Assembly: GCA_040753015.1 (NCBI GenBank)
Contig: JBFMHM010000002.1
Location: forward strand, 36,319-100,318
DNA length: 64,000 nucleotides
Origin: Candidatus Omnitrophota bacterium
Lineage (GTDB): Bacteria; Omnitrophota; Gorgyraeia; Gygaellales; JBFMHM01
Reading direction: 5' to 3'
Positions 4,466 through 61,134 of the stretch are shown here, one piece after another. The translations under genes and the position numbers were made by a program. The notes under the pieces were generated by a model. It was not told where the DNA came from, did no database searches, and saw only the letters and a list, made by a program, of their open reading frames with translations. Every line of letters starts with the position of its first letter. Positions within the stretch are counted from its first letter, which is position 1.

Positions 4466-5579
4466 TTCGCTCCTTATTTTTAAAAAATTCGATAACATAG
4501 GCAATTATATAATCGTGTTGTTCTTTATCCATCTCTGGAAAAATTGGTAAAGATAATATTTTTTTTGCCTTATTGCACGAAACAGGAAAATCTGCTTCTT
4601 TTAATTTAAGATATTCATATGCTGGTTGCACTGGTAACGGAATAGGATAATGAATCCCAGTAGAAATACCTTTTTCTAAAAGATACTTTCTTAGTTCTTC
4701 GCGGTAACGCGTTTCTACTACATAAAGATGATATGCGCTTTTAAGTCCTTCCGGTTCTTTATAAATTTTCAAATCGCCAATACCATTTAATCGTTGAGAA
4801 TAGATATCGGCCAATTCCCGCCTTGATTGATTCCAGCCTCGTAAAAATGGTAATTTTACAGCAAGTATAGCTCCTTGAATCTCATCCATCCGCATATTAT
4901 AACCCTCAAAATCATGAATATACTTACCGCCTCTTCCATGGTTTCTAAGTTTTGCAACGTATTCAGCTATTATTGAATTATTTGTAGCAACTGCTCCAGC
5001 ATCGCCAAATGCTCCTAAATTTTTCCCCGGGAAAAAACTATATGTAGCAATATCTACCATTCCTGCAATACTCTTTCCATTAATCTCGGCTCCATGCGCT
5101 TGAGCGCAGTCTGCCACAACTCTTAAATTGTATTTTTCTGCTATTTTATTTAAACTTTTAATATCTACTGGTAAGCCATAAAGACATACAGGCAATAAAA
5201 CCTTAGTTTTATCGCTAATCTTTGATAAAACATCTTCCGGAGAAATATTGTTAGTTTCTGGGTCGACATCTGCAAAAACAACCCGTGCACCCGTCATTGT
5301 AATGGCTTCGGATGTTGCTATAAAGCTATTTGCTGCAGTAATAACTTCGTCACCGTAACCAACATTTAAAGCTTTTAACGCCAAATAGATAGCATCTGTT
5401 CCATTTGCACAACCAATGACATGTTGTACATTTAAATATTTGCTGAAAGCCTCTTCAAATATTTTTACATGCCGACCCTGAATAAACTCTACGTTATTTA
5501 TACACTCAGCTATCGCAGAATCAATTTGCATTTTAATTTTATTATATTGTATTTTTAAATCAACAAATGGAATCCTCAT
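4458..5579 (-). CDS. DegT/DnrJ/EryC1/StrS-family PLP-dependent sugar aminotransferase (ArnB/WecE/WbpE-like)
   Basis: MRIPFVDLKIQY...QGRHVKIFEEAFSKYLNVQHVIGCANGTDAIYLALKAL...DEVITAANSFIATSEAI. This is the characteristic family N-terminus and length (373 aa). Confidence 0.85.
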   Translation of the reverse strand: MRIPFVDLKIQYNKIKMQIDSAIAECINNVEFIQGRHVKIFEEAFSKYLNVQHVIGCANGTDAIYLALKALNVGYGDEVITAANSFIATSEAITMTGARVVFADVDPETNNISPEDVLSKISDKTKVLLPVCLYGLPVDIKSLNKIAEKYNLRVVADCAQAHGAEINGKSIAGMVDIATYSFFPGKNLGAFGDAGAVATNNSIIAEYVAKLRNHGRGGKYIHDFEGYNMRMDEIQGAILAVKLPFLRGWNQSRRELADIYSQRLNGIGDLKIYKEPEGLKSAYHLYVVETRYREELRKYLLEKGISTGIHYPIPLPVQPAYEYLKLKEADFPVSCNKAKKILSLPIFPEMDKEQHDYIIAYVIEFFKNKERNV

Positions 5580-7198
5580 GTTTTTATTTTTATTTTATTG
5601 CAATAATAAAATGTTATAAATTTATCAATTGAAAAATTTATAAGCCTAATTAATGTTAAAAACCCTAAGAAATAAAAAATCACCATAAAAGGATCAATAG
5701 GAATACGCATTCTGTATGTTCCGGGAACGAATAACATAGGTATGATTAAATTATAAATAATAATCCCGCTAAAAATAAACCATACAAGCTTGTTAGGGCT
5801 CTTAAAAATATTAATAATTGAAACACAAAACCCAATAATCAAAAATAAGAAGAATAGTATTTTTTTATTATCGCTCATAATAAAATAATAATATGTGCTA
5901 GCTATGTATGCATAAATTTTGGTAAAAATATTTGGTTTCGCGTTAAACTTAACGTATCTTTTAGTTGGATCGTGCACCCAAACATCGAGAACATCTCTAT
6001 GTGCTTTTTCAGCATCTAGTAAGCCCTTATAAGGATATTTACCCGTATTATATGACCTTAACCCCGGTATATATAAAACTGTGGGCTCTACGACTAGTTG
6101 CATTAGAACTACATACCTAAAGGTATTTTTAAAATATTCAAAAGGGTACTTTTTTATGCAATCTAAAGAAGCTCGAAGAAGAACATCATCTACATCTGCT
6201 GCTAGTTTAATTTTCTTATCTTGGAAATAAGAACAAAAAGCAGGAATATGACGCTTCCATGCATCAGGACCGAAATAATAATCATAATATTTCCATGATT
6301 TTCTTTGTTCGAGCCCCTCTTTTTCTTTGCGAAAAGCAATATTCCTCTCAAATGATTCCTTGATATCTTTAATATAAACACTATCGTAATCTACTATTTT
6401 TTCATATTCCACAACACGTGAATACAAATTAAGCCCAACACATTTAGTCATAGCAAAAAATCCATTATGTTTAGAATTGTAAATCATCCATGGCAATATA
6501 CTACTTAGATAAAAAACTGCTCCTATCAAAAATAAAAAAGTTGATTTAAGCTTATTAGCATTTTTTTTGTTGAGTAAAAAGATAGTGAATAGAACACAAA
6601 GAAATACAACTAATAGTTGTGCTATAGGCCTAATATTAGTTGCAAAACCAGTAAAAACAAAGGAAAATAATAAAAATTTATACTTCTTTGTTTCAGCATA
6701 TTGCATATAAAAATAAATGATAAAAGCTAAAATGAATGAATAAAAAAGTTCAGTCATAACATAATTTGCATATGACCAGATTTGCAAAGAAAAACAAGAT
6801 AATAAACCGCATAATAAACTTTTTAGCCTATCCTTAAAAAGCAAGAAAGAAATAAAATATACCATTAAAATTATAATTACAGCCATTAAATGCTGCGTAA
6901 AACGTAAAGCAAAAGTAAAATTTTCGGGAAAAATTTTAAGCAAACCTACTAAAAGAAGCGGATAACCGGGTGTTCGATTAATGCTTAACGAGGAAAAATC
7001 AAAAAAATCTTTTATTCGAACAGCAGCTACAACATAAGTACCTGAATCAGAAAAAACCATAATAGTAGTTCCTAAAAAAATAATAGTTTGAGTTAAAATT
7101 GCAACCGCGAGTAAAAAATAGAAATGTTGAAACCCAGAATTACACCAATTCTCTAGACTAATAACTATAGAGTTTATATATTTTTTAAAGTTGATCAT
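5576..7198 (-). CDS. Polytopic membrane protein, GT-C-fold glycosyltransferase-like (ArnT/PMT-like); function not established
   Basis: 540 aa with >10 predicted TM helices and a short periplasmic-loop acidic motif (FSDSGTY) near the N-terminus. Sits between an ArnB-like aminotransferase and an ArnC-like GT2. Confidence 0.4.
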   Translation of the reverse strand: MINFKKYINSIVISLENWCNSGFQHFYFLLAVAILTQTIIFLGTTIMVFSDSGTYVVAAVRIKDFFDFSSLSINRTPGYPLLLVGLLKIFPENFTFALRFTQHLMAVIIILMVYFISFLLFKDRLKSLLCGLLSCFSLQIWSYANYVMTELFYSFILAFIIYFYMQYAETKKYKFLLFSFVFTGFATNIRPIAQLLVVFLCVLFTIFLLNKKNANKLKSTFLFLIGAVFYLSSILPWMIYNSKHNGFFAMTKCVGLNLYSRVVEYEKIVDYDSVYIKDIKESFERNIAFRKEKEGLEQRKSWKYYDYYFGPDAWKRHIPAFCSYFQDKKIKLAADVDDVLLRASLDCIKKYPFEYFKNTFRYVVLMQLVVEPTVLYIPGLRSYNTGKYPYKGLLDAEKAHRDVLDVWVHDPTKRYVKFNAKPNIFTKIYAYIASTYYYFIMSDNKKILFFLFLIIGFCVSIINIFKSPNKLVWFIFSGIIIYNLIIPMLFVPGTYRMRIPIDPFMVIFYFLGFLTLIRLINFSIDKFITFYYCNKIKIKT

Positions 7199-8624
7199 TT
7201 TTTACCCGTAAAATACTAAGACATCCTTTAAAAATAAATTTTAAAAAAAGATTTAACATTTCAATCAATCCAAGCATTTTAATTACAGTAAAAATTCTTC
7301 TTGGAGTTAAATGAATTCTTAACAAACCAATTTTTTGTAAAGAAATAAGGTCTCTTGAAGTTAAATCATTAACCGATATTGGGCTAGAATCATAACGCCT
7401 GTATTCAGAAAAGTCGTTTATTGAAAGCCGCATTCCATGCTTACCACTAACTGCCCAATCATACATAACAGAACCCGGATAAGGATTTGCTATTGAAAAA
7501 TTTGAATACAAAACCTGCGGAATACTTTTTACAAAACGAATAGTTTTCTCAACAGATTTTTTTGTTTCACCAGGTAAACCCAACATGACAGAACAAGCTG
7601 GCTCAATTCCAAGCTCCTCGGTTATTTTAAAAGCATCTAGCATGGCTTCATGAGTAACATCTTTGCGAATTATCTTTAAAATTTTTGGATCTCCACTCTC
7701 AATGCCATAGCTAATCCTTATTAGACCGGCTTTCTTCATTAGTTCTAATATTTTTTTATCTACAAGATTAGCTCTTGTCCACCCTTCAAATGTGATCTTA
7801 ATATTACGCCCCAAAATCTCATCGCAAACTCCTTTTATCTGTTCTTGCTTTAAAGTTAAATTCGAATCCATAAAAAAGAAATGCGATATACCTAATAAAT
7901 CTAGCCATTGCTCTATTTCGTCTACGATGTTTCTCGGTGAACGAAATCTAATACTTGGATTAGTTAATGGCTCGCTACAAAAAACACATTTAAACGGACA
8001 CCCCCTTGTTGCCATAATCGGTAAGTAATTGCGTGATTTAAACTTAGCAAATGTCATAACATATTTTTTATGATTTATTAAATGCATTGCCGGGAATTGA
8101 AGCTCATCTAAACTATTTATTCGGTTTGCGGGTTCGGTCTCAATAATTTTTCCGTTTTCCCTATAAATAAAACCTTTTATCGAATCATAATTATCTAATT
8201 TGTTTTCAATAATATTTAAGAAATAATTAAAAGAATTGTCGCTTTCTCCAAAAAAACCATAATCAAAACAGTCAAAAAATGCCTCTTTTTTAAAAATATT
8301 AATATGCTCTCCGCCAATTAAAACTGGAGATTTAAATCCTTTCGCTTTAATCTCTTTGGCTAAGATAACAGCTTTATGAAATATAGGTGAAGTCGCCGTA
8401 ATACCAACAAGATCGAAATTATGCCTAATAACAGTATCAACTAATGACTTCGTATTATAATCTTCAACGTCGGCATCTATAAATCTCACTTTGTGCCCTC
8501 TTTTTTCGGCAACTGAAGCGAGATATAAAATTCCAAGCGGTGGCTGTGAATTACGTTTTTTTGCAATTTTTGCAAATATACCTAAATCTTCAGTCCATGT
8601 AGGACTTACAAACAAAATTTTCAT
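7185..8624 (-). CDS. Cobalamin-binding-domain radical SAM enzyme (class B rSAM), paralog 1 of 4
   Basis: N-terminal B12-binding Rossmann-like region (KILFVSP...GILYLASVAEKRGHKVRFIDADV...LVGITAT). Radical SAM cluster motif TRGCPFKCVFC. Confidence 0.8.
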   Translation of the reverse strand: MKILFVSPTWTEDLGIFAKIAKKRNSQPPLGILYLASVAEKRGHKVRFIDADVEDYNTKSLVDTVIRHNFDLVGITATSPIFHKAVILAKEIKAKGFKSPVLIGGEHINIFKKEAFFDCFDYGFFGESDNSFNYFLNIIENKLDNYDSIKGFIYRENGKIIETEPANRINSLDELQFPAMHLINHKKYVMTFAKFKSRNYLPIMATRGCPFKCVFCSEPLTNPSIRFRSPRNIVDEIEQWLDLLGISHFFFMDSNLTLKQEQIKGVCDEILGRNIKITFEGWTRANLVDKKILELMKKAGLIRISYGIESGDPKILKIIRKDVTHEAMLDAFKITEELGIEPACSVMLGLPGETKKSVEKTIRFVKSIPQVLYSNFSIANPYPGSVMYDWAVSGKHGMRLSINDFSEYRRYDSSPISVNDLTSRDLISLQKIGLLRIHLTPRRIFTVIKMLGLIEMLNLFLKFIFKGCLSILRVKNDQL

Positions 8625-9502: not shown

Positions 9503-10899
9503 CTTGTTTTTAAAAAAGCGCTTATATGTGCAAATATGGTACGGTTTAATAGTGTTTTATAAATCATACGCAAAATATAGTCTATCCGAAAATAAAATTT
9601 TTTATGGGAAAGGTTGTAGTATTTATAAATAGTATTCCAAGAAAGAACATCATGATCATAAAGATATTGTGGTGATACCGAAAAATTATATTTTTCCCAA
9701 TCTTTTGTTTTTATCTGCCCGCGAGATAACATTAAATTAAACATTTGAGTGCCTGGAAGCGGAATAGCTATCGCAAATTTAGCATAATCCGGATTAAGTT
9801 TTATTGCGAAATCGATAGATTTCTTAATATCTACTTCATTCTCTGTTGGATTACCCAGCATAAAATAACACTCAGTTTCTAATTTTGCATTCTTGGCCGA
9901 CTCAACTGCTTCTTCAACCTGTTTAAGCGTTATCATTTTATTTACAATATTCAAAATCCTTATTGAACCAGATTCTACACCAAAAGGAATCCTGTAACAT
10001 CCGGCTCGTTTCATAATCCTTAAAAGTTCAATATTAATTCTATCTACTCTTATGCCTCCCCTTGGATACCATGGAAACTTTAATTTCTTTTCAATTATTA
10101 TTTCACATATTCTAAACGCTCTTTTCATGTCCACTGTGAATATATCATCAATAATTTGTATTTCTTTAAATCCTAATTCAAGCATCTTTTCGATTTCTTC
10201 CACAACCTTCTCAGGAGATTTCATTCTTACTACATTCCCATGTATATTTTTATTACAAAAAATACACCTTCCATAACATCCCCTAGATGTTTCAAGATAG
10301 CCTATTGGATCTTTCCTGCTTGAGATTTTTGGCTGACGACAGCTCTTAATATTCAATAAGTCATAAGCAGGAAATGGAAGAGAATCAAGATCCTTTACAA
10401 CAAAATTCTGAATCTTGGAGGCCACAACTTCGTTATTTTTTTTAAAATAAATATTAGGTATATCGACATTAATGCCTGATTCGGCAATCATCTTTAATAT
10501 ATAATCCCCTTCTCCTCTAACAACACAATCTATTTGGCTTTCTATTAAAACTTCTTCCGGAAGAGCTGAAACATGAGGCCCGCCTACAACAACTAAAATT
10601 TTATTATTGATTTTTTTAACTAAAGAACTGATCCTGTAAGCATTATATATAAGCGGGGTAGTAGTTGTAATTCCAACGATATCTGGTTTAAAATTAATAA
10701 TTTCGTTATGTAAAGTATTATCGTTTGCATTTAGATTATTTAAATCTATAATTTTAACTCTATGCCCAGCATTAACTAAAGGGGCTGCTACAGAAATTAA
10801 TCCTAATGGTGTTATACCTCGAGATATCGCGCTCTTGACCTTTGAATGCGAAAATATTTCTTCGTAATAGTTTGGATTAACTAATAGAACTTTTTTCAT
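9496..10899 (-). CDS. Cobalamin-binding-domain radical SAM enzyme, paralog 2
   Basis: KKVLLVNPNYYEE...GLISVAAPLVNAGHRVKIIDLN...IVGITTTT. rSAM motif TSRGCYGRCIFC. Confidence 0.8.
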   Translation of the reverse strand: MKKVLLVNPNYYEEIFSHSKVKSAISRGITPLGLISVAAPLVNAGHRVKIIDLNNLNANDNTLHNEIINFKPDIVGITTTTPLIYNAYRISSLVKKINNKILVVVGGPHVSALPEEVLIESQIDCVVRGEGDYILKMIAESGINVDIPNIYFKKNNEVVASKIQNFVVKDLDSLPFPAYDLLNIKSCRQPKISSRKDPIGYLETSRGCYGRCIFCNKNIHGNVVRMKSPEKVVEEIEKMLELGFKEIQIIDDIFTVDMKRAFRICEIIIEKKLKFPWYPRGGIRVDRINIELLRIMKRAGCYRIPFGVESGSIRILNIVNKMITLKQVEEAVESAKNAKLETECYFMLGNPTENEVDIKKSIDFAIKLNPDYAKFAIAIPLPGTQMFNLMLSRGQIKTKDWEKYNFSVSPQYLYDHDVLSWNTIYKYYNLSHKKFYFRIDYILRMIYKTLLNRTIFAHISAFLKTRW

Positions 10900-48600: not shown

Positions 48601-48642
48601 AAAAAACCCCCTATTCTTATATATAAAATTAAGAATAGGGGG
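48601..48642 (-). terminator. Rho-independent terminator of the rRNA operon (hairpin could also act bidirectionally)
   Basis: Perfect 13-bp inverted repeat CCCCCTATTCTTA (48607-48619) / TAAGAATAGGGGG (48630-48642). On the minus strand it is followed by TTTTTT (reverse complement of 48601-48606). It lies 17 nt past the 5S end. Confidence 0.6.
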
Positions 48643-48658
48643 TTAATTTTAACCGAGC

Positions 48659-48770
48659 AATTTCCTACTCTCCCAATTCATTGCTAAATTAGTACCATCG
48701 GCCTCGAGAAGCTTAACTACCGTATTCGGAATGGGAACGGGTGTTTCCTCCTCGGGTAATATCACTCGGA
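48659..48770 (-). rRNA. rrf: 5S ribosomal RNA
   Basis: Reverse complement reads ...CACCCGTTCCCATTCCGAATACGGTAGTTAAGC...GCCGATGGTACT...GAGAGTAGG... with terminal helix CCGAG/CTCGG. Confidence 0.8.
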
Positions 48771-54928: not shown

Positions 54929-55558
54929 ATGAAATATTTAACCTTAATACAAAAAATACAAAATAGTAAATATTATATTTTTTCCCTTCGCGATTTATTG
55001 ATTTTATTCCCTCAAGAAAATAAGAAAACTTTGCAGAATCAGTTATGTGAGTGGATCAAAAAAAAATACATCATCCGTTTAAAGCGAGATTTATATGAAC
55101 TCATTGATAAAAGCAAAGAAATTATTATCCCCGATGTTTATATTGCAAATAGGCTTTATCAGCCTTCTTATGTATCCTTGGAAACCGCTCTCTCTATTTA
55201 TAATATTATTCCGGAAGTTGCATTTGCCGTAACCTCGCTAACAACTAATGTCACGCGTAAATTTAAAAATAGCTATGGCCAATTCTATTATTTTTCTTGC
55301 AAGCCGAGCGCTTTCACGGGATATCAAATACAAGAATATGCCGGATTTAAAACAGCCATTGCAGATAAAGAAAAAGCCATTGTAGACTTTTTATATTTTC
55401 GATTTAACGGTAACAAAATCCCTGATTTTAAGGAGGAAAGATTTGATAAAGATATTGTCGAGGAAATTCGCTGGGATAAATTATTTACTTATGCTAAACT
55501 CTACAACCTCAAGGTTTGGAAACTTTCTAATTTTTTAAAGGAGTTTGTCGGATGCTGA
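54929..55558 (+). CDS. AbiEi-like antitoxin/transcriptional regulator (type IV TA system) - putative
   Basis: ~209 aa protein immediately upstream of, and translationally coupled to (ATGCTGA overlap), an AbiEii-type nucleotidyltransferase. Start taken at ATG 54929 (MKYLTLIQKIQ). Confidence 0.45.
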   Translation: MKYLTLIQKIQNSKYYIFSLRDLLILFPQENKKTLQNQLCEWIKKKYIIRLKRDLYELIDKSKEIIIPDVYIANRLYQPSYVSLETALSIYNIIPEVAFAVTSLTTNVTRKFKNSYGQFYYFSCKPSAFTGYQIQEYAGFKTAIADKEKAIVDFLYFRFNGNKIPDFKEERFDKDIVEEIRWDKLFTYAKLYNLKVWKLSNFLKEFVGC

Positions 55559-56337
55559 CATGGGATGGATTAATAGAACAAGCCAAAATATTGAACTTGC
55601 CATTAAATAAACAACGGGCAATTGTCAGGGAATATGCCCAAACAATTATTTTAAAAGGAATTTATCAAGCTGATCTCGGAAAAAAATTATTTTTTATCGG
55701 CGGCACTGCCTTGAGATTCGCTTATGGCCTTAAGCGATTTTCCGAAGATTTAGATTTTGATGCCAACAAGAATTTAACTTTTATGGATTTTAAACAAATT
55801 CTAAAAGTTTGTAATACTACGTTAGAAAAAGAAGGAATAGAAAATTCCACTACCTGTAAGGAAAAAGGCAGTTTATTAATCGGCCAGATTAAACTAACCA
55901 ATATTCTACAAAATTATAATATTACAAAATTAAAAGATGAAAAATTGATGATAAAATTTGAACTAAACAGGCCAAAATGGAATCTTACGGCAGAATCTGC
56001 CGTAATTAACAGATATGGATATCTATTTACAGCTATGCTGGCAAACAAATCTGTAATGTTTTCTGAAAAAATAATTGCATTCCTTAATCGAAAACGCGGC
56101 AGGGATATTTATGATATAATTTTTATGCTTCAAAATAAATTCCCTATAGATAATCATATTTTAAAAGCAAACGGCTATGAATTAAGCACAAAAGAATTAA
56201 TTCTTAACCGTATTAAAAGTTTAAAAAATAATGACTTGCATTATTTAACAAAACAAGTCGAACCATTTTTACTTCAGGAAGAAGAAAAAGATTTTATTAT
56301 TAATTCCGCAAATTATATCAAAGCGCTTTTAGCTTGA
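55552..56337 (+). CDS. AbiEii/AbiGii-family nucleotidyltransferase toxin (DUF1814-type)
   Basis: N-terminal NTase motif FFIGGTALRFAYGLKRFSEDLDFD (GGTAL ... DLDF). Confidence 0.6.
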   Translation: MLTWDGLIEQAKILNLPLNKQRAIVREYAQTIILKGIYQADLGKKLFFIGGTALRFAYGLKRFSEDLDFDANKNLTFMDFKQILKVCNTTLEKEGIENSTTCKEKGSLLIGQIKLTNILQNYNITKLKDEKLMIKFELNRPKWNLTAESAVINRYGYLFTAMLANKSVMFSEKIIAFLNRKRGRDIYDIIFMLQNKFPIDNHILKANGYELSTKELILNRIKSLKNNDLHYLTKQVEPFLLQEEEKDFIINSANYIKALLA

Positions 56338-56346
56338 TAATGCTTC

Positions 56347-59300
56347 TTATCCAATAATCGTAATTTGTACTTGTGAGAGGTCAATGCCGCCTGCCCCGTG
56401 GGCGTCAGCCTCTACGGGGCCGGTGGCCTGTGGTATTTCTACGGCTGTGGTTGCAACTATTAACACAGGTTGCGCCGCAGATAGCTCTCCTATATGCTCC
56501 ATAGTTGTATCTGGGTCGCCTCCTGCATCTCTTACTAATGCCTCTTGCTCTAGCGTTAAGCCACCTTGTAATTCAGCTGGTACAGCTGGGCTACTTATAC
56601 CGCCTTTATCTTCCTTCCTCTCCCATACCACATACACATCTTTAAATGAATAATCTTTTGGTAATGTATTCCATTTAATAGGTTCGCCTAATGTTGTTTT
56701 AGGATATTTTTTTCTTTCGATTGTTTTGTTTATATCCGAGCGGTTGGAAAGAATATTCCTATCAGTAGGAAAATAAAGAGCTTCAAAACCACCTGCCTCT
56801 GCAATACTAATAAGCGCTTGTTCAACTAAAGGATACAGTTCGCTTGCCTTTACTTGCGAAAGAAATTCCATACTTGGGTTTATCCCAGGGCAAGTAAGGT
56901 ATTTTTTGCCTCCAATAGTTACAATGTATAACCCGATAAAACCGCAAGCCTGATTGGTAGCTGTATCGATAATTGCAAGCGGTAAGAAACTTGTATCTTT
57001 CCAAAGCTTAATGTCCGGAGCAACACATACACCTGCGTTTAAGCCCCATAAACTAAAAGGTATGCCTTTTGCAATACGAAATTCTAATTTAGCGGTTCCT
57101 TTGGTGTAAGCAATAAACTTTGCCTTTTCCTGCCTTATAGTATCTAATGTTGGTTTAAAAAATGCCTTTGTTAGGGCAGGCTTTGACGCCTTTGGATGCG
57201 GCCTACGAGCAAGTATCGCATTAATCGCTTCTATTAAATCTGAATTGTTAATTAAGGGTAATATTTGAATTGTTATTTGGAAATTTGTAAACTTGCTTAA
57301 AACACGAGTTATTGCCTGTTGTTTACGAGTATCATCCAGTGCAGCATTTGACCAGATACTTTCTAATATAGTTTTGATTGATTCTGGGTTTGCAATAGAG
57401 TCACCTTCTTCAGAAAGACTAGGAAATGTGTCCGCATCTAATTCGTCTAACACTTCTTTAAATAGCTTAGACAGCTCCTCTTTATCCGTAAACATAATCT
57501 CAAATATTTGGACGCTTGAGTAATCATCAGTAATTGCCTCAAGCCGCTGTTTTATGGCTTCATCATAACTTGCAAACTTATAGAACTTAGCTAAAGCTTC
57601 TTCCTGCTTGGTTGAATTGAGAAGATCAGCTAACCACTCAACTAAAGCTTGTTTAAATGCCTTTTTTGCTTCTCTTTGTTCTTCTGTTCGTTTTGCCTCA
57701 TCAGAAATAGAGCAACGCAGGTGGTTAAGTAAAGAAGAAAGTTTGCTATCCGGATCAAAGGTTTTTCCAGGGGCTAACCTATATTCAACAAGGTTAAGGC
57801 TGCTTTCGCCAAAGCTTCTATCTTTAAGCTCGGCTGGGATATGTTTTCTTAGGTCACCTGCTTGGCTAAAGCTATTGAAATGGTTTTGTATATCTTCTTT
57901 TTTTACAAAAGATGCCCCTGATGCCGGAATAGCCATTTGCAATACTGCAATAACTGCTTCATTAAGTTCTGTTTTAGGGATACCTTTAGCTTTTAAGAGC
58001 TGTCTTAATAATGCAAGCTCCTGTTCACCGACTTTATCTTGGACAATTTGCTGTTTAAAGGCAAACAATTCTTGTAAACCCTCTTGGCCTGTTTGTTTGT
58101 ATAACCTAAATAAGCTTGGGCTAAAAGAATGAGTTAGGTCAACAAATTCAAAGATTCGCCCTCTTTCATCATCTGATAAGCTTATATCAACGCTTCTGCT
58201 TTTAAGGCCATCTAAGATGCCATCAAGGACTTGTATTGCAATACGCCTATTATGTTCAATTACTTTTATGTAAAAATCAACTACAGCAAAAAAATTTAAT
58301 TGCTTATCTTTTATAAATGGAACATATTGTTCAACTAAGAGTTGAAGTAGAGAACCTGAAGTATACTTATCGCTAGCAGCAAATAACGCTAATAATTTTA
58401 TAACAATATCATCCCAGTTAGCTCTTAGGAAGTCTTCGCCGAGGCTGTTTTTAAGTGCGGGAAGGCTGTGCTGGAATAAATACCAGGCATTTCCTCCTGC
58501 GGCAATACCTAATCGCACAATATCATCCCAGTTAGCTCTTAGGAAGTCTTCGCCGAGGCTGTTTTTAAGTGCGGGAAGGCCGTGCTGGAATAAACCCCCG
58601 GCATTTCCTCCTGCGGCATTTGCTAATTGTACAAGCTGATTGCCTACAGTATTTAGCGATGCTGCATCAGTAATTAAGCCAAGATCCTTTGCAAAAGGAA
58701 GGCCGTAGAAGAATAAATACAAGGCATTTCCTCCTGCGGCAATACCTAATCGCACAATATCATCCCAGTTAGCTCTTAGGAAGTCTTTGCCAAGGCTGGT
58801 TTTAAGTACGGGAAGGCCGTACTGGAATAAACCCCCGGCATTTCCTCCTGCGGCATTTGCTAATTGTACAAGCTGATTGCCTACAGTATTTAGCGATGCT
58901 GCATCAGTAATTAAGCCAAGATCCTTTGCAAAAGGAAGGCCGTGCTGGAATAAAGACAAGGCATTTCCTCCTGCGGCATTTGCTAATTGTACAAGCTGAT
59001 TGCCTACAGTATTTAGCGATGCTGCATCAGTAATTAAGCCAAGATCCTTTGCAAAAGGAAGGCCGTGCTGGAATAAACCCCCGGCATTTCCTCCTGCGGC
59101 AATACTTAATCGCACAATATCATCCCAGTTAGCTCTTAGGAAATCTTCGCCGAGGCTGTTTTTAAGTGCGGGGAGGCCGTGCTGGAATAAATTCCAGGCA
59201 TTTTCTCCTGCGGCATCATATAGTTTCTTAAAATAAATATATCCGTACTCATCGATAATAAACCTATAAAGATTTTTCCAATTTGTGCCTATTTCAAAAT

Positions 59301-61134
59301 TTTTGCTAGATAAGAATTCTTTTGCTGCTTGTTCTTCGTCTGGCAATTGTTTATTTCTATTTAATATTGCCCTCTTTATTCTTAGATAAAGTTCTTTTGT
59401 ATCCTGCCACATTAGTTGTAAATTAGTGCTCCCATCTTTCCTTAAATAGGCATTGTAATTTCGTTTACATAAAAAACTTAACAATAAAATTACCGGATTC
59501 ACTCCTGAACCATAAAAAGTAATTTCGTCATTATCTTGTGCTGCTCCTCCTACTGGAAAACTTGCCTCGACTTTAATATCACCTGTAGCAACTGCCCTGA
59601 ATTGACGAGCTGAAGCTGAATCTGCTACAGTAGTTGCTCCGGCAAACGCTCCCAACTCCACACCACCACTCACATAACTTCTTCGAATTTGGCGAGCCAC
59701 TGGCGTATCGCCAATTCGATCCTGAGCACTGTCGAAGGATCTTGTAGTTTTAGTAAGGTGGTATTCTCCTTGTTTTACTGAGTCTAAGTATGCGGCAAAG
59801 ATTTGTTGCGGGGTTATTAGATCCTTAGATATTAGCCCCCTTAGATTATTAGAGTTAATTATCTGCGCAAAAGCATTTGCCCTAAACCAGTCAGACCGCT
59901 TCGCTGATGGTATAGGGTCACCCTGAACCGTGCTTTGCTCTGGTTCAGGGCTGAGTTCTTTAGAAATTAGGCCATTCAAATTGTTTGTGTTGATAATTGA
60001 TGAAAAAGAATCTGTAGGGGCGAAACCATGTTTTCGCCCATCAGTTATAGGGCGATTACGCGCCTGCCTACCGGCAAGGCAGGGAATCGCCCCTACGTTA
60101 TCTTGCCCTATACCAGAGCTCGCTTCGCTCGCACGGTATAGGGTAAGCGCTTTGCGCTTATACCATTTAGCAAGTATTATTGCATTGTAAATTTGTCTTA
60201 GTGGCTCATAGCTTGAGTCATGGTTAACTTTATAGGTTAGGTTAGGAAGTATTAGTTCTTTTAGTTGGGATTCACAGTAGGATTGTAGTTCTTCAGTTCG
60301 ACTGTTCGTCAGTTCTTCGGTTCTTCGGTTTTGTTCTTCTTTTTGATTTTTGGTTTGTATATTTGATTTTTGATATTTGATATTTGATTTTTCAAGGTAT
60401 TCACTTTCCAGTAACACTTTCAGTGTTGATTTGGTAATTACACAGCTACCTTTACCGTCTTCGTATACTTCTGCTTTGTCTGGGACAATCCAGACACGGA
60501 AGGTGATTGGAATGTTTAATTTATCTGTAGGGGCGAAACCATGTTTTCGCCCATCAGTTATAGGGCGATTACGCGCCTGCCTACCGGCAAGGCAGGGAAT
60601 CGCCCCTACGGGTTGTTTCTGCAATTCTTTTGCCTTTTCAAACACCCTATTCCAATACTCTGTTGCTCCTTGTGATAATCCTGGGAATAATGCAAAGGCT
60701 GTGTCTTTCTTTAGCTTTAGGTCTAGGAGTAATAGATGCTTACCCATGTCTGTGTAGGCAATATTTGCTCCTGTAAGCCTATTAGGCTGGTTTGGGTTTA
60801 GGTTAACCCAGAATTCAGAGTCGTTTATGGTTAGAGCTGTTAGAAAGTAGTTTATGTTGGTTGCAAGGTTTGCTCTTTGGTCTTTGGTTAGAATTGTGTT
60901 CTTTGGGATGTTTAAATGAAACGATATCGTTTCATTTAAACCCTGAACCGTGCTATGCTCTGGTTCAGGGTAGAAGTTAATGCCCAATAATGTTGGCCCC
61001 GAAAAATCCGCTAACGCGGATCTCGGGGTTATGTTTTGAAAACCATAACAAAACTGGTTAAAACAAAAAATCCCTGCTAATAATAAGATAAATATACGTT
61101 TAATCATATATAATAAGTATGCACTATAAAACAA
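56347..61134 (-). CDS. Giant (1595 aa) secreted repeat protein of unknown function; N-terminal signal peptide, in-frame palindromic insertions, ~7 tandem ~41-aa helical repeats, unknown C-terminal ~400-aa domain
   Basis: Uninterrupted ORF. Signal-peptide-like MIKRIFILLLAGIFCFNQFCYG (the true start may be Met10, ~61107). The internal repeats are described in the separate repeat features below. Confidence 0.6.
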   Translation of the reverse strand: MFYSAYLLYMIKRIFILLLAGIFCFNQFCYGFQNITPRSALADFSGPTLLGINFYPEPEHSTVQGLNETISFHLNIPKNTILTKDQRANLATNINYFLTALTINDSEFWVNLNPNQPNRLTGANIAYTDMGKHLLLLDLKLKKDTAFALFPGLSQGATEYWNRVFEKAKELQKQPVGAIPCLAGRQARNRPITDGRKHGFAPTDKLNIPITFRVWIVPDKAEVYEDGKGSCVITKSTLKVLLESEYLEKSNIKYQKSNIQTKNQKEEQNRRTEELTNSRTEELQSYCESQLKELILPNLTYKVNHDSSYEPLRQIYNAIILAKWYKRKALTLYRASEASSGIGQDNVGAIPCLAGRQARNRPITDGRKHGFAPTDSFSSIINTNNLNGLISKELSPEPEQSTVQGDPIPSAKRSDWFRANAFAQIINSNNLRGLISKDLITPQQIFAAYLDSVKQGEYHLTKTTRSFDSAQDRIGDTPVARQIRRSYVSGGVELGAFAGATTVADSASARQFRAVATGDIKVEASFPVGGAAQDNDEITFYGSGVNPVILLLSFLCKRNYNAYLRKDGSTNLQLMWQDTKELYLRIKRAILNRNKQLPDEEQAAKEFLSSKNFEIGTNWKNLYRFIIDEYGYIYFKKLYDAAGENAWNLFQHGLPALKNSLGEDFLRANWDDIVRLSIAAGGNAGGLFQHGLPFAKDLGLITDAASLNTVGNQLVQLANAAGGNALSLFQHGLPFAKDLGLITDAASLNTVGNQLVQLANAAGGNAGGLFQYGLPVLKTSLGKDFLRANWDDIVRLGIAAGGNALYLFFYGLPFAKDLGLITDAASLNTVGNQLVQLANAAGGNAGGLFQHGLPALKNSLGEDFLRANWDDIVRLGIAAGGNAWYLFQHSLPALKNSLGEDFLRANWDDIVIKLLALFAASDKYTSGSLLQLLVEQYVPFIKDKQLNFFAVVDFYIKVIEHNRRIAIQVLDGILDGLKSRSVDISLSDDERGRIFEFVDLTHSFSPSLFRLYKQTGQEGLQELFAFKQQIVQDKVGEQELALLRQLLKAKGIPKTELNEAVIAVLQMAIPASGASFVKKEDIQNHFNSFSQAGDLRKHIPAELKDRSFGESSLNLVEYRLAPGKTFDPDSKLSSLLNHLRCSISDEAKRTEEQREAKKAFKQALVEWLADLLNSTKQEEALAKFYKFASYDEAIKQRLEAITDDYSSVQIFEIMFTDKEELSKLFKEVLDELDADTFPSLSEEGDSIANPESIKTILESIWSNAALDDTRKQQAITRVLSKFTNFQITIQILPLINNSDLIEAINAILARRPHPKASKPALTKAFFKPTLDTIRQEKAKFIAYTKGTAKLEFRIAKGIPFSLWGLNAGVCVAPDIKLWKDTSFLPLAIIDTATNQACGFIGLYIVTIGGKKYLTCPGINPSMEFLSQVKASELYPLVEQALISIAEAGGFEALYFPTDRNILSNRSDINKTIERKKYPKTTLGEPIKWNTLPKDYSFKDVYVVWERKEDKGGISSPAVPAELQGGLTLEQEALVRDAGGDPDTTMEHIGELSAAQPVLIVATTAVEIPQATGPVEADAHGAGGIDLSQVQITIIG
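58389..59214 (-). repeat. Coding tandem repeat, ~7 units of ~123 nt (38-41 aa; two alternating unit types), long stretches 100% identical between units
   Basis: Units of type AAGGNAxxLFQHGLPALKNSLGEDFLRANWDDIVRLGI alternate with type AAGGNAxxLFQHGLPFAKDLGLITDAASLNTVGNQLVQLAN. Nucleotide blocks such as ATTTGCTAATTGTACAAGCTGATTGCCTACAGTATTTAGCGATGCTGCATCAGTAATTAAGCCAAGATCCTTTGCAAAAGGAAGGCCGT recur three times. Confidence 0.85.
60012..60097. repeat. GC-rich 86-nt palindromic element, copy A (in-frame inside the giant gene)
   Basis: CTGTAGGGGCGAAACCATGTTTTCGCCCATCAGTTATAGGGCGATTACGCGCCTGCCTACCGGCAAGGCAGGGAATCGCCCCTACG. Terminal inverted repeats GTAGGGGCG / CGCCCCTAC. Internal hairpins GGGCGAAA/TTTCGCCC and CCTGCC/GGCAGG. 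Encodes VGAIPCLAGRQARNRPITDGRKHGFAPTD. Confidence 0.85.
60525..60610. repeat. GC-rich 86-nt palindromic element, copy B (100% identical to copy A, 513 nt = 171 codons away)
   Basis: Identical 86-nt string, same reading frame, different flanks. Confidence 0.85.
60911..60970. repeat. Two adjacent 30-nt palindromes inside the coding sequence
   Basis: 60911-60940 TTTAAATGAAACGATATCGTTTCATTTAAA is a perfect palindrome. 60941-60970 CCCTGAACCGTGCTATGCTCTGGTTCAGGG has 9-bp arms. A second copy of the latter, CCCTGAACCGTGCTTTGCTCTGGTTCAGGG, lies at 59921-59950. Both copies encode PEPE(H/Q)STVQG. Confidence 0.85.

Follow-up and report, generated by a model that had tools for sequence, protein, structure and literature searches.

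The stretch of DNA analysed here, referred to as the window, comprises 64,000 nt of contig JBFMHM010000002.1 from AB1755, a metagenome-assembled genome (MAG) of Candidatus Omnitrophota, and contains a large minus-strand open reading frame (ORF) in which a GC-rich palindromic element occurs twice, in frame and without a single difference. Each copy is a doublet of two inverted hairpin units of a 26-nt type tagged with the tetranucleotide GTAG, one, designated AAA, on the plus strand and the other, designated ATT, on the minus strand, with a 10-nt spacer between them. This organization is that of paired repetitive extragenic palindromic (REP) sequences, and we refer to the element as a REP doublet. 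The host gene and the parts of the two doublets are as follows.

56347..61134, minus strand: host ORF, 1595 aa; NCBI MAG protein AB1755_02660 (1586 aa, start at 61107)
60014..60096, no strand assigned: REP doublet copy 1, GTAG...CTAC, 83 nt; minus-strand peptide VGAIPCLAGRQARNRPITDGRKHGFAPT; loop site C, after the AKWYK block
60014..60039, plus strand: copy 1 AAA unit, GTAG-GGGCGAAA-CCATGT-TTTCGCCC, with an 8-bp stem and a 6-nt loop
60040..60049, no strand assigned: copy 1 spacer ATCAGTTATA, 10 nt between the REP units
60050..60096, minus strand: copy 1 ATT unit, GTAG-GGGCGATT-(27-nt loop)-AATCGCCC; canonical 6-nt loop expanded
60063..60083, no strand assigned: copy 1 nested hairpin CCTGCCTACCGGCAAGGCAGG, 21 nt in the ATT loop; encodes CLAGRQA, absent from the copy in the paralogous protein P0005
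60527..60609, no strand assigned: REP doublet copy 2, identical to copy 1; loop site A, between KAKELQKQP and IPITFRVWIVP
60527..60552, plus strand: copy 2 AAA unit
60563..60609, minus strand: copy 2 ATT unit with expanded loop; nested hairpin at 60576-60596

A first-pass annotation of the window had drawn attention to two identical 86-mers (60012-60097 and 60525-60610) lying 513 nt apart in the same reading frame, and a base-by-base check bore this out. The identity extends 2 nt further to the left, yielding an 88-nt string that is 100% identical at 60010-60097 and 60523-60610, the two copies being separated by 513 nt, or 171 codons. The flanks of the two copies are unlike each other (GAAT/CT...CG/TTAT for copy 1 and TTAT/CT...CG/GGTT for copy 2), and a search for the target-site duplications suggested by the first-pass annotation found none in the flanks of either copy. 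The element is indeed GC-rich against a background of about one-third GC, with 59.3% GC as compared with 40.2% for the host gene and 34.0% for the window. The terminal motif GTAGGGGCG or its complement occurs at only 4 sites in the 64 kb, all of them in the two copies, where 0.14 are expected, and none of 100 shuffles reached 4. Three of the six frames of the element are free of stop codons, and both copies are translated in frame from the minus strand of the host ORF as VGAIPCLAGRQARNRPITDGRKHGFAPTD, so that the host protein gains the peptide twice, as had been proposed; the gene itself, at 1595 aa, is large rather than giant.

The basic REP unit of 26 nt consists of GTAG, an 8-bp stem and a 6-nt loop (DNA fold -8.2 kcal/mol, z = -4.8), and the AAA and ATT units differ by a compensatory swap of AA/TT for TT/AA in the stem. 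The loop of the ATT unit in the window is 27 nt long instead of 6 and contains the additional palindrome CCTGCCTACCGGCAAGGCAGG, which had no match in any fetched locus. There are consequently three hairpins, two tagged with GTAG and a 21-nt one nested in a loop, where two internal hairpins had been described; the terminal inverted repeats, reported as 9 bp, are 10 bp long (GTAGGGGCGA/TCGCCCCTAC), with each arm forming the base of a 26-nt hairpin. Folding of both strands, as had been advised, gave structures far more stable than those of shuffled sequences (RNA -45 to -47 kcal/mol, z -5.6 to -5.9; DNA z about -5). As single-stranded DNA the two-hairpin form and a single long hairpin are nearly isoenergetic, the long hairpin being the minimum-free-energy fold for RNA and for minus-strand DNA. 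A CT dinucleotide lies directly 5' of the GTAG of the AAA unit in both copies (60012-60013 in copy 1).

Other identities considered for the element were rejected: an intrinsic terminator, as there is no terminator-like site at the element; a structured RNA of an Rfam family, the matches of the window to curated covariance models at their gathering scores being rRNAs and tRNAs only; a tRNA- or tmRNA-derived sequence, rejected after a search; a CRISPR repeat, as there is no array and the only two copies have a coding spacer between them; and a miniature inverted-repeat transposable element (MITE) with terminal inverted repeats (TIRs), as there is no target duplication.

The host protein possesses a signal-peptide-like N-terminus, an N-terminal domain of ~430 aa that is common to its paralogues, and internal 79-aa repeats, and it has no match in Pfam. 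The AB1755 MAG encodes six paralogues that have the start and the N-terminal domain in common and differ in their C-terminal parts. Three of these (P0002, P0003 and P0004) are 50-54% identical to the host over the shared part and 62-63% in the alignment of the N-terminal domain, in which conserved blocks alternate with variable loops. The 29-aa peptide is missing from all three at both of the positions that it occupies in the window. Another paralogue, P0005, carries a 21-aa version (VGAIPRNRPIINGRKHGFAPT), without the seven residues CLAGRQA, at a third loop (site D). Because some paralogues lack the peptide and another has a shorter copy elsewhere, the inserts represent additions to the gene rather than ancestral protein sequence. 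In homologues from other assemblies (L002, L040, L050 and L068), a doublet lies in a fourth loop, site B, after the same AATAAC flank in each case; its sequence context suggests that it was inserted earlier and passed down together with the gene. Modelling of the N-terminal domain of the host gave a poor structure (predicted local distance difference test score, pLDDT, 46.7; 7-sequence alignment); within it, both insert peptides fall in low-confidence coil between better-predicted elements, weakly suggesting placement in loops.

One of the site-B homologues, on contig CAZIRV010000015.1 (L002), comes from a MAG labelled 'uncultured Planctomycetales', although its N-terminal domain is clearly homologous to that of the Omnitrophota proteins and its REP doublet is at the same site as in Omnitrophota OFTM38. 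The MAG may have been mislabelled or misbinned, or the gene may have been transferred.

The hairpin is widespread in other genomes. The pattern GGGCGAAA-N6-TTTCGCCCCTAC was scanned against GTDB representatives, one genome per species, and gave 96 matches in 85 loci of 43 MAGs. These MAGs are labelled Omnitrophota, Patescibacteria, FCPU426, Planctomycetota, Deltaproteobacteria, Nitrospirota, Spirochaetales, Clostridia, Verrucomicrobia, Aminicenantes and others, labels that may be wrong, as L002 illustrates. The AAA 26-mer of the window is the commonest unit among the 85 loci (36 occurrences). GTAG is invariant in every unit of the window and the loci, in a collection made with a pattern that itself contained GTAG or CTAC. 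In a large share of the loci a partner unit, GTAGGGGCGATTC(C/T)ATGTAATCGCCC, lies 7-108 nt away in convergent orientation; 28 of the 35 convergent pairs are ATT+AAA hetero-doublets, with lengths of 59-160 nt. The majority of elements (82/117) lie outside long ORFs, 24/117 lie in other long ORFs, and 11/117 lie in ORFs resembling REP-associated tyrosine transposases (RAYTs), described below. As many as 22 units were present within the 70 kb sampled from one MAG. The loop variant CTATGT occurs 18 times in one Patescibacteria MAG, in both unit types, and other genome-specific loops are CAATGT (a Sedimentisphaeraceae MAG), CACCGT (three other MAGs) and CCCTGT (Omnitrophota OFTM38). Such genome-specific variants fit amplification within each genome.

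Within the stem, five of the eight pairs show compensatory change (69 cells, 58 distinct 26-mers), a level reached in none of 500 shuffles. The positions -1 and -2 before GTAG are occupied by a pyrimidine in 78-94% of the units, and G is almost absent there. The same DNA is read elsewhere in other frames, as GENMVSPL and VGAKPCFRP, and is also present in non-coding DNA. Since the hairpins of the 43 MAGs lie mostly outside long ORFs and are read in varied frames, conservation is at the DNA level and not at the level of the peptide. A HMMER scan of 1.84 billion representative proteins with the 32-aa peptide matched the host protein (P0001) only, and the AAA hairpin had 0 matches in viral contigs. 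Metagenome contigs contained no match to GTAGGGGCGATTCCC-N0-30-CGTAATCGCCC, a pattern that was too narrow because it assumed CCCCGT as the ancestral loop and CCGCGT fits equally.

A locus from a Patescibacteria MAG (L061) has an ATT hairpin whose 6-nt loop is likewise enlarged, by about 30 nt (GTAGGGGCGATTCTATACTTGTCTCGCCGAAGTTTTAACGAAGGTGGGTAATCGCCC). Together with the nested hairpin of the window, this suggests from the sequences that REP loops could themselves be insertion hot spots.

All stop-to-stop ORFs of the loci were clustered without prior assumptions. The most widespread family, found in 18 loci, encodes proteins of ~200 aa with the motifs MPNH(I/F)HGI and LWQRNYYEHIIRN, and WQRNYY was also read as a motif. 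The family scores 23.5 bits against Pfam Y1_Tnp PF01797 (cut-off 23) and matches the NCBIfam model NF047646, 'REP-associated tyrosine transposase', with E = 6.5e-17 and with 61.8 and 47.8 bits, below the curated cut-off of 80 bits, in part because the loop encoded by the REP sequence splits the match. Its sequence match to TnpA-REP of E. coli is weak. The AlphaFold2 model of the protein has a pLDDT of 82.5, and its top Foldseek matches are IS608, ISDra2, IS200 and TnpA-REP 4ER8; some source databases label members 'REP element-mobilizing transposase RayT'. Thus, as judged from its motifs and its predicted structure, the family has a Y1 HUH fold with an HUH motif and a catalytic Tyr. A tblastn search with the RAYT against phages and plasmids gave distant matches only (29-38% identity), and as the viral scan was also empty there is no sign of a phage or plasmid vector.

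The transposase genes themselves contain the doublet. In 16 of the 18 RAYT-like ORFs, hairpins lie in the reading frame directly after the HUH strand, where they encode the peptide VGAIPCNRP...GENMVSPL; the stretch encoded by the REP sequence, residues 89-126, is low-confidence coil in the model. RAYT-like genes with an internal in-frame doublet, whose two units converge and whose stems are compensatory and specific to the lineage, include the following, among others.

352-957 of locus L013: RAYT-like gene with internal in-frame doublet
7003-7638 of locus L042: RAYT-like gene with internal in-frame doublet
4874-5488 of locus L049: RAYT-like gene with internal in-frame doublet
6372-7052 of locus L025: RAYT-like gene with internal in-frame doublet
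10001-10597 of locus L086: RAYT-like gene with internal in-frame doublet
7976-8596 of locus L088: RAYT-like gene with internal in-frame doublet

The doublet inside the ORF is the constant feature of this association, and REPs flanking the RAYT gene are seen only in some loci (L003, L025, L051 and L077). The order of the units is reversed in the RAYT ORF of L051 and apparently, as read from the peptides, in several database members as well. Among the best 120 of at least 7,999 database matches, anchoring succeeded for 117; REP-type loop peptides are present in 117/117 and both units, by a strict pattern, in 94/117, values drawn with a search profile that contained the loop encoded by the REP sequence and so biased the top matches toward members carrying it. 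At the DNA level, two further loci have different, equally paired doublets in the same place after the HUH strand, one with GTAGGGGCAGAC-CTGTGT-GTCTGCCC and GTAGGGGCGAAC-CTGTGT-GTTCGCCC and the other with GTAGGGGCCGAT... and GTAGGGGCAAAA... as its units. A stem change in L088 forces a paired amino-acid change, E..S to K..L. Because the stem changes in the RAYT loop are compensatory and force such paired changes, the constraint acts on the DNA. Furthermore, in at least 6 MAGs a RAYT-like gene with its doublet co-occurs with dispersed copies of the same variant.

Some of the RAYT ORFs in the loci are truncated, and these may be pseudogenes. In four database proteins (P0075, P0078, P0096 and P0182), the REP-coded loop of the RAYT contains tandem runs of half-hairpins (NPCIRPFNPCIRPFNPCIRP; GENITGENMVSPL), extended in P0182 to a long tandem run of near-identical 9-aa units; from their sequences, these runs look like slippage at hairpins.

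We consider it likely that the element of the window is a non-autonomous doublet of the REP or REPIN type (a REP doublet forming a hairpin) that is moved by a RAYT and tolerated in protein loops. The first-pass annotation had proposed a small mobile palindromic element living inside ORFs, and this view is sustained by the paralogues without inserts, by the copy elsewhere in P0005 and by the hairpins in 43 MAGs. By analogy with the biochemistry of TnpA-REP/RAYT and IS200/IS605 enzymes, we infer that a RAYT mobilises the doublet, that one is encoded in this genome and that the copies arose by transposition rather than by gene conversion. Each unit would fold into a hairpin on single-stranded DNA, probably at the replication fork, and a Y1 HUH transposase of the RAYT type would recognise the hairpin and its GTAG, cut beside the hairpin at a pyrimidine dinucleotide and transfer the strand, such that the doublet is copied or moved to a new site without target-site duplication. 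Both the absence of a target duplication and the pyrimidines at -1 and -2 fit cleavage of the Y1 type. Most insertions would end between genes, and those within genes would last only where the frame is kept, no stop codon is introduced and the site is a loop that tolerates ~29 additional residues, as the variable loops in this family of secreted or surface proteins do.

Several points weigh against this interpretation. This genome is known to hold only three copies, of which two lie in the window and the third was read from a protein sequence, and all belong to one paralogous family. The 64-kb window contains no RAYT and no further copy of the doublet, and a RAYT of the AB1755 MAG was not among the 120 best matches or the cluster members examined, RAYTs with the peptide VGAIPRNRP included. 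The exact long (86-nt) variant was absent from metagenome contigs scanned with its core pattern and from the 1.84 billion representative proteins, so that the mobility of this form rests on two copies in a single gene. In addition, the loci were chosen by the hairpin pattern itself, and the 26-mers in the covariation count had been preselected for at least 6/8 pairs.

The best-surviving rival explanation, although an unlikely one, accepts that these are true REP doublets and attributes their identity to gene conversion between two older insertions or to replication slippage between hairpins; by the same process the nested 21-nt hairpin of one copy would have reached the other. It accords with the distance of 513 nt between copies in one gene that are 100% identical over 88 nt, with the extension of this identity 4 nt beyond GTAG on the left and 1 nt beyond CTAC on the right, and with the occurrence of the long variant in no other searched place, the P0005 copy being of the short form; the tandem half-hairpin expansions in the RAYT loops (P0075 and P0182) lend slippage some plausibility. 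Conversion tracts usually reach into homologous flanks, however, and here the flanks are unrelated, while the common ATCT and G flanks fit a copied unit equally well.

It is improbable that the repeat is instead kept for a function of its own, be it an RNA structure acting on translation or mRNA decay, a site bound by a nucleoid protein, or direct repeats between which 513 nt could be deleted in frame. The very stable folding on both strands would suit such a role, REPs elsewhere are credited with effects on mRNA stability and with protein binding (PMC3733652), and the direct repeats are in phase (513 = 3 x 171), so that a deletion would vary the surface protein. That deletion, however, would remove conserved core blocks of the domain, the paralogues function without the element, and in other genomes the hairpins lie mostly outside genes in any orientation and frame. 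There is also no Rfam match and no terminator-like site at the element, and the structured RNA or recombination site that had been offered as an alternative to a mobile element finds no support. An ordinary protein-level repeat, in which a 29-aa functional motif was duplicated within the protein, would account for a peptide translated twice in frame but merits next to no credence, given that P0002-P0004 lack the peptide at both sites, that the DNA is identical at every synonymous site, that the same DNA occurs elsewhere in other frames and in non-coding DNA with stem changes compensatory at the DNA level, that no other representative protein among 1.84 billion has the peptide, and that both peptides lie in low-confidence coil of a poor structure model. 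Equally little is to be said for a repeat-induced chimera of assembly or binning: MAG assemblies can collapse or mis-join at repeats, but the ORF is open over 4.8 kb and identical to the NCBI protein (P0001), independent assemblies show doublets within genes (L002, L040, L050 and L068), and the block-by-block collinearity of the ORF with paralogues, and with homologues from other assemblies, on both sides of each copy makes an artefact unlikely.

If the element is a REP doublet moved by a RAYT, it could further be a stray copy of an undescribed REP-RAYT lineage in which the doublet is built into the transposase gene, a package extending across MAGs labelled as more than ten phyla. We advance this idea tentatively and would not quite give it even chances. 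The doublet of such a lineage would occupy, in frame, the disordered loop that directly follows the HUH motif, its stems being compensatory and specific to the lineage, and enzyme and substrate would always travel together. The package would have spread or persisted among mostly uncultivated, often ultra-small bacteria, its offspring filling intergenic DNA and the loops of large surface proteins, and the transposase could even be switched or tuned if its internal doublet were excised or inverted. If the placement of the doublet within RAYT genes holds up, a RAYT with its own in-frame doublet would represent a new way for a domesticated transposase and its substrate to stay linked, and a self-carrying RAYT, with a protein of ~200 aa and 26-nt hairpins, would be a simple testable system.

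REP doublets inside genes are a kind of event already described, to which the window adds another case, whereas the doublet inside the RAYT reading frame may be new. A limited literature search, which leaves prior description possible, found no papers on REPs or RAYTs of Omnitrophota or Patescibacteria, no description of a REP doublet within a RAYT reading frame and none of the near-identity of one 26-mer across MAGs labelled as many phyla. For annotation, odd GC-rich peptides in proteins of Omnitrophota, Patescibacteria and other MAGs, such as VGAIPCNRP, GRKHGFAPT and GENMVSPL, are explained as translated REP hairpins and should count as inserts, not as protein motifs, in homology searches and domain calls. 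Single-strand elements of the REP/RAYT type would be active, or recently active, in streamlined genomes of uncultivated phyla, and the variable loops of one secreted protein family have repeatedly taken up REP doublets, with four separate sites occupied.

Other GC-rich palindromic inserts accumulate in the 5' 1.2 kb of the host gene. Two further types are present, both without the GTAG tag and neither with a match in any fetched locus.

59920..59950, no strand assigned: second palindrome type ACCCTGAACCGTGCTTTGCTCTGGTTCAGGG, GC-rich, encoding PEPEQSTVQG; separate from the REP doublet
60940..60970, no strand assigned: second palindrome type, copy 2, 30/31 nt identical to 59920..59950, encoding PEPEHSTVQG
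60106..60143, no strand assigned: third palindrome type CCCTATACC...GGTATAGGG, GC-rich, single copy, 10 nt from REP copy 1

The arms of the second type are ACCCTGAACC...GGTTCAGGG. The variable loops of P0002-P0006 contain other short recurring peptides (NRRTDELKNSRT, PQTPSLPKRGIKGEF and SAKGGPASGGKSQSEKLEELTNQRTDELKN), which, from their sequences, may represent yet more small DNA repeats that are translated. At 58337-59216 the host gene holds a 237-nt (79-aa) unit, with a motif like NAAGGNAGGLFQHGLP...DFLRANWDDIVRL, in four diverged tandem copies; this unit is an ordinary protein repeat unrelated to the REP doublets. At their C-termini the host protein (56347-56420) and P0002 share the motif GGIDLSQ(V/I)QITI(I/V)G despite unrelated middles, and this motif may be a sorting or anchoring signal of the Omnitrophota family.

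Elsewhere in the window, the gene adjoining the host ORF (55552-56337, plus strand) has a match to the AbiEii nucleotidyltransferase toxin of type IV toxin-antitoxin systems (PF08843, E = 2.6e-19). The 5S rRNA gene (48652-48769, minus strand) is closely followed by a perfect 40-nt palindrome, AACCCCCTATTCTTATATATAAAATTAAGAATAGGGGGTT (48605-48644), which probably terminates the rRNA operon. On the minus strand, 429-47401 is an unbroken run of 36 co-directional ORFs, each of at least 250 aa, which looks like a large cluster with repeated modules because paralogous segments (repeat families D2, D3, D6, D10 and D12) recur every ~10-15 kb.

Among known systems, the element is closest to the GTAG-tagged REPs, for which inverted dimers, a link to RAYTs, and intragenic dimers coding for 20-30 aa, sometimes two per ORF, have been described (PMC3733652). 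It shares with the GTAG REPs and bacterial interspersed mosaic elements (BIMEs) of E. coli (Di Nocera et al. 2013, PMC3733652) the 26-nt GC-rich imperfect palindrome beginning with 5'-GTAG and the prevalence of inverted pairs made of two slightly different types. Most copies are extragenic in both, and a minority are in-gene dimers coding for 20-30 aa. The Y and Z types of E. coli REPs are comparable to the AAA and ATT units. The present ones differ in having hosts in uncultivated phyla such as Omnitrophota and Patescibacteria, which the retrieved REP/RAYT papers do not cover, and the window copies have a nested hairpin in one loop. Classical REPs are lineage-specific, whereas here almost the same 26-mer recurs in MAGs assigned to many phyla.

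Movement of REP pairs as REPINs has been proposed (PMC3116915), and TnpA-REP of E. coli, which requires the 5' GTAG, binds REP hairpins in single-stranded DNA, cleaves at CT and is able to transfer strands (PMC3479197). The resemblance to REPIN-RAYT systems (Bertels & Rainey 2011, PMC3116915; PDB 4ER8, PMC3479197) lies in the inverted REPs with a short spacer, the possibility of one long hairpin, a single-domain Y1 HUH protein matching RAYT models and fold, and genome-specific variants. A survey of REPs reports only units that flank the RAYT gene or overlap its ends (PMC3733652). In classical REPtrons, too, the REPs flank the RAYT gene, whereas here the RAYT ORF itself contains the doublet, placed in frame in the loop that follows the HUH motif.

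The first-pass annotation had likened the element to Rickettsia palindromic elements (RPEs) and to Correia elements of Neisseria. The first likeness stands in part, and the second does not, the element being a GTAG-tagged REP doublet linked to a RAYT-like family and not a TIR-type MITE. RPE-4 and RPE-6 have been equated with REP-type repeats tagged with CGTC, a class without an associated transposase (PMC3733652). Like the window element, RPEs are palindromic repeats inserted in frame and translated, in their case in small host-associated genomes; as compared by description only, the window element differs in its tag, GTAG and not CGTC, in its Omnitrophota host and in its link to a RAYT. RPE-1 is longer, about 100-150 bp. 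Correia elements are about 100-155 bp long and have plain terminal inverted repeats, a TA target duplication and DDE-type transposition. With these and other TIR-type MITEs the window element shares its short length, its non-autonomous nature and its inverted ends; unlike them, it has no target duplication, each of its ends is a GTAG-tagged hairpin, and the associated enzyme is of the Y1 HUH type.

Finally, members of the IS200/IS605 family such as IS608 and ISDra2 are alike in the Y1 HUH fold of the enzyme, in the recognition of subterminal hairpins on single-stranded DNA and in the absence of target duplication. In IS200/IS605 elements the left and right hairpins enclose the transposase gene and the whole moves together, whereas here the pair of hairpins, 59-160 nt long and non-coding in origin, is dispersed alone.

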